Assembly: GCA_963924565.1 (NCBI GenBank)
Contig: OZ004607.1
Location: forward strand, 29,636,001 to 29,700,000
Origin: Ascidiella aspersa
Lineage: Eukaryota
DNA: 64,000 nucleotides
Direction: 5' to 3'
The notes under the pieces are model-generated. The model had not been told where the DNA came from. It saw only the letters and a list, made by a program, of their open reading frames with translations, and did not search any database. The position numbers were made by a program, and so were the translations under genes. Positions 18,901 to 63,371 of the stretch are shown one piece after another (the first letter of the stretch is position 1; each line of letters begins with the position of its first letter).

Positions 18901-21900
18901 TGGAACTCTGATTAAGGCTTTTAACCAGGCGGATCGACTCCAATCAATTTGAGTTTAGTCTCAGACCACTTATAACACTATAGCTGAAAGGGATGTCAAA
19001 CTCACCCGATCAGTTCCGCGTAGTCGCTCTCGTGCGACATCAGCTGGTCGTGAGTGCTGTGCTCAGCGATGCGTCCTTCCTTCAGCATGATGACGTCATC
19101 GCAGTCCTTCAAGTACTGCAGCTGGTGAGTTACGAAGAGCACGGTTTTGCCCTTCATCTCCTGCTTGATGCAGTTCCAGAAGATGTGCTTGCCCACGTGA
19201 GCGTCTACCGCCGACAGCGGATCGTCCAGCAGGACGACGTCACGTGAGCTGTACACCGCTCTGCACAAAAAAATAAGAGTAAGCAAGGGTATTCTACTTG
19301 AACCGCAAGTTAAGTATTATCGGTTACCACCCGAATGAAAATAATGGAGTTTCAAACACAACATTATTTATTTTTCGTTCTGTGATACGCCGAAATCAAA
19401 TTAAATGCGTTTGAAAGAATATATTCCAGGAGTTCAAGTTTAAAACTGACTAAACTTGCATTGTTGAACTTGGTCTTTCCGTTGGCACGTATGAAACTTT
19501 TTCACCTTTAACAAAATGCAGTACATTCGACAGTTTTTAAAACTGACTGAAAACTTGATTGGCAATTTCTTTAATGTACACTTTGTTCAGCAACGCAAAC
19601 AAGATAAGCAAACAATTTATTCGCTTTGCCAGTTCACTGCCCGCTACTGTGTGTCAACTAAATATCAGCTTTGGTAAAAAGGTTCTGTTTGTTGTTGCCC
19701 AACTTCGGTTGCCGGTTTGACCCGATATTTCTCTTGTCGCTTATACGGCAAGAAAGGGCTCTTATGCAACAGATTGCTAACGTCAGTCTTCGTCGAGGTT
19801 CACAGTTTTACCCTTTCTCGTCTTAGGCGAATATTACCCGAAACAGAATCCGGATTTTTAATTTAGGAGAATAATTTTGTGTTTGCGTCAAATAAGCATA
19901 GCTGGGCAATTAGCTAAAATGCAAGAATTGGCTTGTAAAATTTTGTGTACATCTAGATTAAAAGTCATGAGCTTTGAAGACCTACAGTAAAAAGCAATGG
20001 ATAATAACCTTTGGGTCTGTTTTAAATAGCCGCGTGTAGCCTACTTGATAAATTCATTTGACATAAATACTCCTATAGAGGCCACAAAACAAAAAGTAAA
20101 AATCAATAAACGTATCTTGGAATTAGTAAATCGTTAAATGTTTCAATAATTATCACTAAAAATGTAAACTTTTCAGAAATAGCCTAGCACAGTGGTTCTC
20201 AAACTTTTTTATACACAAAATAACACTTGTTTTTACGTTATCAATGGGATGGGTGTACTTGCTTCTATGCTATCAGCTCGTCTATGTTAACCTCTACCGA
20301 ATCACTTTTTTGTGTGAAGCAATCACGAACAGTTTTAAAACCGTGACCGTACAGCTCACAGTGACAGCGCAGCAAGCTGTAAAAACGTAACTCTCATTAG
20401 CACAATGCAATACTATGAGGTCACAATGGACAATTCAACTCAAGGTGTACAATAACGTGAATGAACAACTAATCAGCTTGCTTTGGAAAAGTAAGTTTCC
20501 TGAATTTTTTTTGCACAAGAGGTTTTCTTCGTCAGGAGCGTCGGGTTATAGATTTTTTGTTGGGTTTATTGTCTCGCGGACCCCAAAAGGACCGCGGACC
20601 CCAGCTGGAGAACCAAAGGCCTAGCATATGTGAAAACCCTGCCTTGTTGACCACTTTTTAAACTAAAAATCATGTTGTATTTTTGCAAATAGCATGCCAT
20701 CAGCAATACCTGGCTATGCTGATGCGTTGCTTCTGCCCTCCAGACAAGTTAATTCCACGCTCACCGATCTCCGTCATATCTCCATCCGCCAAAATCTTGA
20801 AGTCGGACGACAGCGAACAGGCGTCCACCACTGTAAAGGAGAATATAGTTTAAATCGTGCTTTTTCAATGTTTCTATTTCTTTTACAACTGTGGAGAAAA
20901 CAATTTAAACTATCTACTTATTTCTCGCTCTTTGTAACACAGACAGTAGGTTCCTATATATTTTTGGTTTATTTGTTACTTAAAACCAGGCGGAAACAAT
21001 TTCACTCAAAAATAACTTTGTTCATGTGTTGTACGTAAATGACTAACAACGTGTGAAAAAACATCTTTCTTAAGTGTATGTCACGCTAATTGCCTTTTTA
21101 ATGTTCAACTAATTTTTAAAATTGTCCGCTTTCACTCAAGATTATAAGCAGTATACAATATCGTTTTGTCAACAAGTACTTTTACAGTTTGATTTCTATC
21201 ACCCCTAAAATGGTGGTACTGCCCATATTTAACGTTGCCTGTGATCTTCGTCCTTCCTTTATTTTACCCTATATAATTCTATTTAAAATGATATACTAAG
21301 TCTCTGCCAAAAGTGAATTTTTATCGCGTCTGGCTGGTTTTGGTTTTATGTAAATTAGTTTATTTTATCCTACCCGGGGAACTTAAACAATGTCATTGCC
21401 ACCTTGAACCAATCAGCCAAAAGACAACGTTTAAGCGAAACTCAGACACTCCCATGCCCTCTTCGTTAAACGACCCTTCTTTTTTTACCAACCTCGGTTG
21501 TACTTGGCCTCGTCCCAAGGTGAGCCGAAAAGGATGTTGTCGCGTACGCTTGCGTGGAAGATCCAGGCTTGTTGTGGTACGTAGGCCAGCTTGCCGTTGA
21601 TGCCGATGCTGCCCTTCATGACGCGAAGTTGGCCCAAGATGCTGGAGATCAACGACGACTTGCCGCTGCCCACTGAACCGCAGATGCCCAGCAGCCTTTA
21701 TGATCGTGACAACGTAAGGTTAGATTTCCTACACCACGCAACCAGGAAAAATGCCATTCCATAATTATAAACATGTAACTTTGCGATACCATAAAGTTAT
21801 ATCAATTCAAACAAACAGCAATTGAAGTACCAGTCCAACTTGTAATTGCAAGTGGACCCCAAGTGAAGTCACACTTAACATAAAGTTAAACATTATTTTA

Positions 21901-60400: not shown

Positions 60401-63371
60401 TTTTTTGTAAAAGCGTTATTCAATTTGACATATATGATCCCCTTAACACCATTTTGCTCAACAACTTGCGGTAACCAGTATGCTGTTGCAGGGCTTCGAA
60501 ATTGTAAGAACGCGGCCGGTTTACCCTTAATTAATAAAGTGTAATCGACCTTCTAAGCCTCGCTTTTTCCTCCAGAGCGGTGTACAGCGACCGTGACGTC
60601 ATCCTGCTGGACGATCCGCTGTCGGCGGTGGACGCTCACGTGGGTAAGCACATCTTCTGGAACTGCATCAAGCAGGAGATGAAGGGCAAGGCCGTGCTCT
60701 TCGTCACTCACCAGCTGCAGTACTTGAAGGACTGCGATGACGTCATCATGCTGAAGGAAGGACGCATCGCTGAGCACGGCACTCACGACCAGCTGATGTC
60801 GCACGAGAGCGACTACGCAGAACTGATCAAGTGAGTTAGATCACTTTGCTTGTCGGTTTTGGTTTACTTAAAGTTTTTCGGCTGCTTTAGTTAATGCATG
60901 TCTTTGAGGCATATTCCCTGACTAGGAGCAACTGGCTAAATGTCTTGACTTGAAAGTTGTTATAAATTAGTCACAGTCCGTGGAGAGCCCGTTACAAATT
61001 TACGTTAATTATAAAATGTTCGAATGACTTGGCTAAATTAAGCCTGGGTAAGCAAAATAGTTCGAAATTGTAATATCTCTATTTAGTTTAAAACAGTCAA
61101 GAGTGGATTTAGCGACGACAGCATGTAATGACAATGTGCACTTAAGTCACTGCTCTAAAGTACCTTAAGTAGACCCATGCCTTAATGCAAATGTCACACG
61201 TTAAGCTGAGTCCTTTAACTTAAGCTATTTGATAAAACTCCAGTTGTGTAAGAATATTTAATCACCGTTTTATTGTTAATGCCCGTTTTAGTAATTATCA
61301 CTTGGAGCAGCAGAATGTGGAAGAAAGCAACAGCACTAACAATATAAACAACAGCTGTGAATATCCTGCCGAAGAAATATTTCAACAGCAAATCTGCACA
61401 AAAGATTACAACTACCGAAAAGGTAAAACGTTTTAAGCTTTTTTCGGGCGCTTACCGTGGGGAATGTTGACAAAATTAAAAACTTACATGACTGACTAAA
61501 ACAGACTACCTTACTGATTAAAAACTAAAAAACCTTTAAAGTCCAAATATGCAGAACTAAACATACCGGTACTCATTTCTTTCTCTCCTTATGCGCGTAT
61601 GATATCCTTTGGTAAGTTATGTCCATTCAGGTGAACCCCTCATCGACAAAGCTCAAGTTAACTTGATCAAAGTCGAGTCAAAACAAAAGGGGTCTGTCAG
61701 GGGATCCACCTATCGTCGATACGTCGTTGCGGCCGGTGGGTGAGTCCAATTTCTAAAAGCACCAAAACAAAAATGGTTAAATAAGAGCTTTTGATTTCAA
61801 GGTATGCACTGTCCGTAGTGTGTGGTTTGATTTTCGCGTTGCTTATATGCGGTTCTACGGCTTCCAATTGGTGGCTTGGCTATTGGATTGACCAAGGTGG
61901 AGAGACAATTCCGTGTGCAGAAAATGCGACTTTGTCAGGTAAAAAAAATTAAGCACGTAAATGACGTCAAAATACAATGGCAAAAAGCATAAAGAACGTC
62001 CAATAGGTCTTTCACCTGACGTATTTATGTGTCGAATTTAAGGTGCCGTTACAACTACAACCTCAAAAGTAAACGCTTCAATAAACCAGGAGAAATGCTT
62101 GTGCGTAAGTCCAGATATATCCACGAATGACAAGGTCGACTTTTATCAGGTAACTTCTGGTGAACGCTTGATACGCACAATGATGTTCTCATTTCAAAAA
62201 CATTTTGACATTCTCACAATTTTTTTGCAGCTCGTTTACTTTCTTATCCTACTCGCGACCATTATTTTTGGAGTCGCTAAATCCTGCGTCTTTATTCGGC
62301 TTGTTAGCGTGGCCGCCTGCACATTGCACGACGCAGTTTTTAACACAATCTTGGCAAACCCGATATCCTTCTTTGACGGTACACCTACTGGAAGGATAAT
62401 GAACAGGTAATACGATTTTCCTTAGGCGGTCGTTTTAAATGACTTTAAGGTTTCTCAAGTTGAAAATTCGACCAAATTCGACCAAATTTGAAACAAATAA
62501 TACGACTTTCATTAATTTGCAATCTATGTCCCACATGTTACTGTTGGAACGTATGTCCACAAATTTCATTAATAGGGTAAAACTATTCATTAAACCAAGT
62601 TTCATACATTTATTTTTCTGTTTGATGCAAGTTTTCGATAAAAAATGTGTTTCTCAATATAACATATACTTTTAATTATAAATTGCGCCCAGGTTTGCAG
62701 GTGATATCGATGATATGGACGTTCGCTTGCCATTAATCATGGACAAGTTCTTACAACAGGTTTGTAGGTAAATTATTTACATATTTGCATTTCTATCATA
62801 TTGATTTCGACTTCGGCAAAGTCGCCTGATCTATATTTTTGATCTTGCAGATTTTTCTGGTGGCTTTTTCCATGATAAGCATTGTTATAGTCTTCCCTTG
62901 GTTCCTTATAGCCATCATCGTTTTTGCTGTGCTTTTCGGCTTCATCTACGTTTACTTTCGCAGCGCCGTGAGAGAAATGAAACGACTGGACAGCGTTACA
63001 AGGTGACAAAACATATTAACTAGTCGACAACGTTTTTATTTTAGTTATAATTAGTATAAGACTCAACTGCAATTCAAACGTTTTTCAATAGCGAAGCTTT
63101 AGACCCCTATATACCCGAAATCAGGTGTATTTAGTGCAATGATTTAAGCTGTTTGGTTTTGGAGGTAAAACAAACGGAAAAGTGTCTATCAAGAAAATAA
63201 GTCGCTATGAACACAATACTTAGGACAGTCATCAGTCGTCCTGAATTTGTTTGATTTTACTATTTCATCTGTCTCACGTTTTAGATCCCCGTGGTTCTCG
63301 CATTTGTCTTCAACGGTACAAGGCCTGAGCACTATACACGCCTACGACAAAACAGATGACGTCATCAACAC
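54411..63371 (+). CDS. ABCC5: ABCC5-like ABC transporter, paralog C, 5' 22 exons (NBD2 lies beyond the right window edge)
   Basis: Approximate exons: 54411-54517 (MGDQLEMS...SPVRLD), 54584-54739 ([15 protein letters not shown]), 54978-55121, 55198-55340, 55548-55638, 55932-56105, 56579-56723 ([18 protein letters not shown]), 57188-57339, 58263-58343, 58437-58571, 58635-58735, 59457-59659 (Walker A), 59946-60066 (LSGGQKQR), 60576-60830, 61292-61422, 61631-61739, 61802-61938, 62043-62149, 62231-62406 ([13 protein letters not shown]), 62692-62759, 62851-63002, 63285-63371. Intron positions match paralog B and no stops or frameshifts were seen in the exons read. Confidence 0.94.
57389..57716. mobile_element. 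hAT-type MITE in paralog C intron 8
   Basis: acttagct [CAGTGTTTTACAAC ... TGCAAATCACTG] gcttagca; GGGTCGCC repeats. A related inverted fragment lies at ~49240-49330. Confidence 0.72.

Follow-up and report, generated by a model that had tools for sequence, protein, structure and literature searches.

Gene conversion between paralogs requires a minimum stretch of close homology and ceases permanently once the copies have diverged. According to the intron-barrier hypothesis, introns interrupt homology and oppose concerted evolution (Kourilsky 1983; Kricker et al. 1992, as cited in PMC4052342); heterology is described as a block and introns as barriers to conversion (PMC4052342), and concerted evolution over hundreds of millions of years is described as very rare (PMC6053082). 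Here we describe a cluster of five predicted ABCC5-like transporter genes (A to E) of the ascidian Ascidiella aspersa, including the inverted paralogs B and C, which lie wholly or partly in a 64,000-nt window (assembly GCA_963924565.1, contig OZ004607.1, positions 29,636,001 to 29,700,000, forward strand). We conclude, with a probability of about 0.88, that islands of 170-280 nt are kept near-identical among these five tandem genes by repeated ectopic gene conversion from DNA to DNA, with residual homology setting its limits.

The closest described systems share parts of this pattern. In the copepod paralogs GOT1Sd and GOT1Sr, conversion is mostly restricted to exons, as it largely is in the ABCC cluster, and the intron is too diverged for alignment; the two copepod copies are still much alike in their coding regions and one of them is in decay, whereas in the cluster most exons are saturated at silent sites, the transmembrane domains (TMDs) are 41-62% identical (~41% for B/C against A/D/E) and all five genes have open frames (PMC3728101). 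The pairs BMP8A/B, DDX19A/B and TUBG1/2 resemble the cluster in being old paralogs, one pair inverted, with concerted and divergent exons mixed and GC content at third codon positions (GC3) raised, but they were chosen for tracts spanning two exons and the intervening intron, while the islands in the cluster cover one exon or less (PMC2720389). Clustered protocadherins likewise combine many tandem paralogs with a homogenized, GC3-rich region and a diverging specificity region, but there it is the 3' part of the variable exons that holds the tracts, which, unlike those of the cluster, are not divided into islands by introns (PMC1852091). The cluster agrees with the intron-barrier hypothesis in that short conserved exons escape conversion and long ones do not; the hypothesis was stated as a suggestion, and the cluster offers an exon-length series within single genes, in which length is confounded with conservation (PMC4052342). 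Our literature search found no report of such islands in ABCC genes or in ascidians, although subscription journals were mostly outside the search and this is no proof of absence. The process is known, and the interest of this unusually clean example lies in the depth of divergence and in a test for introns as recombination barriers.

Homogenized exons in the ABCC5-like genes

The Walker B exon of nucleotide-binding domain 1 (NBD1) in gene B (window positions 19006..19260, minus strand) and its partner in gene C (60576..60830, plus strand) are both 255 nt long, in phase 2/2 and bounded by AG/GT ends; the labels Walker A, Walker B and signature for exons of these genes are ones we assume from general knowledge of ABC proteins. 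The initial annotation of the window had placed this pair exactly and estimated about 13 differences, and 13 of 255 nt were indeed counted. The proportion of differing silent sites (Nei-Gojobori pS) is 0.11, and the long runs free of synonymous change that had been described are present: the longest identical run is 72 nt, and 71 of 76 codons for the same amino acid are identical. When the window was compared with itself, this pair was the best exon match (93.9% over 277 nt). The 121-nt NBD1 signature (LSGGQ) exon (20710..20830, minus, in B; 59946..60066, plus, in C) is not homogenized, and here too the annotation was accurate, since the peptides are alike (32 of 39 residues identical, 82%) while third positions differ in 26 of 39 codons (pS 0.93), including 13 of the last 22, all of which encode the same residues in B and C.

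The flanking introns had been said not to align beyond the splice sites, which stands insofar as no long alignment exists; the 12 nt beside the splice dinucleotides, however, match at 7/12 and 8/12, above the means of 4.3 and 4.7 at unconverted exons. GC3 of the Walker B exon of C is 0.85 compared to 0.48 in unconverted C exons, as the annotation had also pointed out.

The view that one exon of one pair is involved proved too narrow, as five B/C exons and five genes take part. Among 25 B/C exons compared (the per-exon counts omit four linker exons with uncertain bounds), pS is 0.11-0.16 in four (255, 167, 239 and 279 nt), 0.34 in one (203 nt) and 0.45 in one (152 nt), and the remaining 19 are saturated at 0.66-0.93, placing the Walker B exon outside the range of most other exons. 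The NBD1 Walker A exon of B (21493..21695, minus) is homogenized with C (59457..59659, plus) most strongly in its 3' half: 17 of 203 nt differ, 13 of them in the first 91 nt (pS 0.34). A TMD2 exon of B (12728..12879, minus) is partly homogenized with C 62851-63002, and its pS of 0.45 is not significant against the strongest codon-bias null. Further along gene B on the minus strand, the exon at 10055..10221, which encodes the second half of transmembrane helix 12 (TM12) and a linker, differs from C 64810-64976 (outside the window) at 7 of 167 nt, and the 239-nt NBD2 exon at 8893..9131 differs from C 65454-65692 at 11 of 239 nt, its central part being homogenized also with A, D and E. Between them, the 113-nt NBD2 Walker A exon (9558..9670, minus) is not homogenized with C (pS 0.72).

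Two cores are common to all five genes. The Walker B exon of B is homogenized with C over its full length and with A, D and E over a core of ~196 nt, in which the five genes differ at 5-24 positions and are 47-50 nt from an unlinked copy, F. The 279-nt NBD2 signature/Walker B exon (7883..8161, minus) contains a 213-nt core with only 1-6 pairwise differences among genes up to 114 kb apart. Both cores stop ~25-45 nt inside the exons when B/C are compared with A/D/E. The start of the last exon of B with 25 nt of upstream intron (7164..7354, minus) is shared with D (92%) and partly with A, and not with C or E; exchange partners thus vary between islands. The 121- and 113-nt exons are homogenized among A, D and E (0.93 and 0.87).

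Evidence for gene conversion

A silent-site run test compared each of ten gene pairs with 2000 shuffles; in nine of them it found segments exceeding the 99th percentile, located on the Walker B exons. Independent codon choice at a GC3 of 0.95 predicts 51 identical codons in the B/C exon and was rejected by the 71 of 76 observed (p 5e-10). Protein identity in the Walker B exon is 0.95 for B/C and 0.86 for B/A, compared to 0.73 for B/Clavelina and 0.71 for Clavelina/Styela, so that paralogs within the species are more alike than orthologs between species, a comparison made at the protein level only. TMD identity runs in another order, with B/Clavelina (0.67) above B/C (0.62) and B/A (0.41).

These comparisons bear on a reading with no exchange at all, in which purifying selection on the nucleotides themselves, through codon bias, splicing signals or RNA structure, froze the exons in every copy. 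As that reading expects, the islands fall within the best-conserved motifs and their GC3 is high. It does not account for the rejected codon-bias null, for the saturation of the equally conserved signature exon, for amino-acid changes away from other tunicates that are common to the paralogs, or for the B/D tract across the non-conserved C-terminal tail, and we consider it very improbable. Across species the Walker B exon is only 71-73% conserved in protein, comparable to several TMD exons.

Phylogenies were built for the two parts of the protein. In the TMD tree (609 columns, 15 proteins), A, D, E and F are joined on a long branch (100/100), B groups with C (96/94) and the two Clavelina genes group together (98/97). 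In the NBD-core tree (163 columns), A to E are grouped (88/88). The TMD data reject an A-E clade without F (approximately unbiased test, p-AU 6e-5) and reject all six copies as one clade weakly (p-AU 0.036, to be read with caution given the long branch). Copy F is close to A, D and E in its TMDs, yet stands far from all five in the NBD1 core. Whole-exon trees retain an old signal coming from the exon ends. Silent-site runs, the rejected codon null and the joints found in independent reads (below) together support the annotation's proposal of ectopic conversion between inverted paralogs, which is the likely origin of the islands. The tracts are separate and the short signature exon between them is saturated, in agreement with its suggestion of separate events that spared the LSGGQ exon.

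Independent reads and variant sites

Independent reads contain the same islands. In raw reads of another individual, set apart by 14 fixed differences in one 136-nt non-coding stretch, the core is covered ~4-fold more deeply (~30) than the left intron (~7). Loose read ends at the core agree with the flanking sequence of C, A, D and E in 29-30 of 30 letters, and runs X1 and X2 yielded contigs with the same core-flank joints. The raw reads also carry the paralog-specific variants. The alternative that assembly or polishing overwrote similar exons could draw on base 19058 of gene B, one of the 13 B/C differences (Ser in B, Gly in the other four copies), which occurs in none of four runs (0/18 DNA reads, 0/11 RNA reads, no X1 or X2 contig) and is therefore a private allele or an assembly error. 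Since the same cores sit on each paralog's own flanks in independent reads, including those of all four other genes, the islands are no assembly artefact, and the chance that they are is negligible.

Variation between individuals was seen at several sites. Polymorphism shared between paralogs is described as a sign of conversion (PMC3924837). At site 19017 B equals C within X1 and within X2, the base differing between the two runs, while B differs from C in the assembly. Run X2 yielded one 133-nt contig at 3.4-4.4x the depth of its flanks, spanning a stretch where all five assembled copies differ, which suggests further homogenization in that individual, an interpretation made uncertain by filtered contigs and ploidy. 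At 14 of the 136 positions in the non-coding segment 54309-54444, every read of run X8 departs from the assembly; two individuals can thus diverge in non-coding sequence nearly as much as converted paralog exons do at silent sites. Eight RNA reads of run X9 exit the core at window position 19038; their ends resemble A but agree with it in only 25 of 30 letters, so that this individual carries either a divergent allele or an additional copy.

Tract ends and template

Tracts had been described as bounded by exon ends. That description does not hold generally, as tracts between B/C and A/D/E end inside the exon and some tracts enter introns. Over the 12 intron bases next to the exon, flanks of converted B/C exons agree at 52.5% of positions (10 flanks), compared to 37.4% (37 flanks) for the others (permutation p 0.008). 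The start (first 50 nt) of the intron after the B Walker A exon (21440..21492, minus) can be aligned to C 59660-59715, with 36 of 49 columns matching in register, the best of 300 shuffles, and is likely an old tract that entered the intron. Five other flanks pass p 0.05 with short matches of 13-17 nt.

Conversion from reverse-transcribed spliced mRNA, an option raised by the annotation, would give exon-bounded tracts. The B/C tracts do extend to exon ends, and an intronless 1402-codon ABCC frame elsewhere in the genome indicates that retroposition of ABCC mRNA may have occurred in this lineage. Against a complementary DNA (cDNA) donor stand the co-homogenized flanks, the intron aligned over 49 columns, the B/D last-exon match that runs 25 nt into its intron and the cross-clade tracts that stop within exons. 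Nor does identity carry on over the splice junction into the short neighboring exons, and none of the introns adjoining converted exons is missing in any of the five genes. Since tracts leak into introns, often stop inside exons and have cost no adjacent intron, the comparison favors a donor that is genomic or unspliced, and a cDNA donor is highly improbable.

Exon length, conservation and base composition

Converted B/C exons (5) measure 167-279 nt and unconverted ones (16) 67-205 nt (p 0.0017; the length tests also omit e1, e11 and the last exon). Exons that escaped are either short and conserved (121, 91 and 87 nt) or long and variable (205, 176 and 174 nt), so length and conservation both seem to be needed for an island, and the length effect is real but confounded with conservation. 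Spearman correlation of length with pS gave rho -0.70 (B/C) and -0.90 (A/B), and the identical-codon measure only 0.41 (p 0.058) and 0.24 (p 0.28). Length as a smooth predictor was rejected, as the correlation depended on the measure and vanished after six converted or partly converted exons were removed, and it was retained only as a threshold-type contrast. A strict threshold was rejected as well: short exons do convert among the younger copies A, D and E, where the 121- and 113-nt exons are homogenized, and one P450 pair likewise has a homogenized 113-nt exon (below).

The homogenized 167-nt exon aligns to human ABCC5 1139-1193, a segment that contains the TM12 pocket residues Phe1145, Arg1148 and Glu1152 (PMC11156954). 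It encodes the second half of that helix, which lines the pocket in human MRP5. This exon bears on the annotation's idea of a uniform ATPase module beside diverging TMDs, and on the alternative in which conversion is real and its products were retained by positive selection for a uniform ATPase while the TMDs diversified. In line with that adaptive step, four of the five homogenized B/C exons code for NBD parts, as do both cores common to all five genes, and the cross-clade boundaries may still be made sharper by selection that removes tracts reaching into diverged sequence. Two B/C NBD exons, the NBD1 signature and NBD2 Walker A exons, are nevertheless saturated, one TM12 exon is homogenized, and the converted exons are the long ones. 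The idea thus fails in its details, the pattern requires only purifying selection and intron position, and the adaptive step, taken by itself, is unlikely.

GC3 in both Walker B exons is 0.79-0.85 compared to a background of 0.48-0.65 in all five genes, and the two Walker B exons exceed even the background of B (0.81 versus 0.65, p 6e-5). A B-like donor had been read from GC3; because the Walker B exons of all genes lie above the B background, GC3 does not point to B and this proposal was rejected. Raised GC3 fits biased repair, and conversion is probably GC-biased.

Proposed mechanism and points against it

After duplication, introns and relaxed exons would drift below the similarity needed for strand pairing and escape permanently, while long exons with conserved protein would remain above the pairing limit, their match renewed by each conversion. 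Tracts would end where mismatches become dense, which for B/C is at or just past the splice sites and for B/C against A/D/E inside the exon, and repeated conversion would raise GC3 through biased repair. Exchange by this recurrent conversion would have continued since duplication.

Several results weigh against this account. The pair D/E has no significant segment in the silent-site run test. With the NBD-core alignment the TMD topology is not rejected (p-AU 0.127 and 0.114), and a tree from the NBD1 core by itself lacks resolution. Copy F, with its frameshift and no NBD2 in the stretch retrieved, is an imperfect control. As sources of sister-species orthologs, runs X4 and X5 (organisms B and C) were tried and rejected, since their pieces are short (151-173 nt) and near-identical (0-8 differences). 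Counted over 4 nt instead of 12, the excess of matches at intron flanks loses significance (p 0.094). GC3 of this region is raised in a single-copy intronless ABCC as well, 0.44 versus 0.33 (p 0.005), a smaller rise. Site 19017, one position taken from contigs of two runs, is a CpG and may therefore have mutated twice.

Gene cluster and neighboring sequence

A search of the genome with the exon found six places, five on the same contig within ~100 kb (88-100%) and one, copy F, on another contig (75%). Spliced alignment gave open frames for all five linked genes, with E, D, A and B on the minus strand and C on the plus strand, and intron positions and phases common to A-E except in linker regions. 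Gene B (7009..36302, minus) is a 29-exon model without stop codons, aligned to Clavelina P0004 (66% identity), with uncertain ends and linker exons. Gene C (54471..64000, plus) runs on past the window to ~68190; its intron 58341-58435 is confirmed by six RNA reads, a low depth, and the Walker B exon is covered by RNA reads, also at low depth. Gene A enters the window with 5' exons at 2542-2460 and 1257-1105 (1..2542, minus), its remainder lying upstream with D and E to about -48300. B and C stand head to head with ~18 kb between their modeled 5' exons (36300-54470), and no additional ABCC exons were found in that interval.

The nearest named full-length proteins among the matches listed are ascidian ABCC5-like proteins (66% Clavelina, 60% Styela), and Pfam ABC_tran matches occur in two of five exons scanned. 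With a TMD-NBD-TMD-NBD layout and ABCC5 as closest named relative, the cluster genes are ABCC5-like (MRP5) by sequence, with ATP-driven export of organic anions or nucleotide analogues as their predicted role; they resemble ABCC5/MRP5-like transporters in best named matches and in having two TMDs and two NBDs, and differ in that A, D and E make up a long-branch group. A homolog search with a gene A TMD exon returned nothing at E 0.001 among 331 candidates, which is weak evidence.

Copy F (G000:C5:6652848-6675900, L021-L023) belongs to the A/D/E group, has one frameshifted exon and an altered D-loop region, and is likely a pseudogene; its NBD2 was not found in the stretch fetched. The intronless 1402-codon ABCC frame on another contig (G000:C3:26178543-26182748; L027:2543-6748), ~40% identical to B and to ABCC5-like proteins and low in GC3, is possibly an old retrocopy. 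An intron of B contains three tandem copies of a ~520-nt unit, ~80% alike (24618-26197), and introns of C contain short high-copy repeats at 63660-63735 and 57600-57661 with depths up to ~1300 reads compared to ~5.

Occurrence elsewhere and significance

The neighboring Clavelina genes P0004 and P0006, on one contig, reach an identity of 0.92-0.98 over five NBD exon-equivalents, compared to 0.70 for their TMDs, a candidate independent case with the same signature at the protein level. Among 22 echinoderm and hemichordate ABCC5-like proteins examined, no clear case was found, with one marginal row, an Acanthaster pair at 0.89. The A. aspersa genome also contains a P450 cluster of ~12 genes in both orientations (G000:C1:30035001-30175000, L038-L051). 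Nine gene models of the ~12 copies were compared, leaving out near-identical or partial copies and a second cluster; one pair has homogenized 113-nt and 145-nt exons, and a count by eye over 36 non-independent pairs found codon identity highest in the longest exon in 19 (2 ties), a weak echo that is confounded with conservation.

A more far-reaching version, which we hold to be doubtful, is that intron positions alone decide which parts are kept in concerted evolution, with ~200-nt islands exchanging continuously since a duplication that predates separation from Clavelina and Styela, over distances of as much as 114 kb and in either orientation, and independently in Clavelina. If true, the intron-barrier hypothesis would find a direct natural test in the cluster, which would also yield a minimum homology length in vivo for an animal germ line. 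Trees, primers, double-stranded RNA or read mapping based on the NBDs would merge five functionally distinct transporter genes. Concerted evolution here appears to persist in one-exon patches among genes with membrane domains 41% identical, so that the shielding of paralogs by introns may be tested exon by exon.

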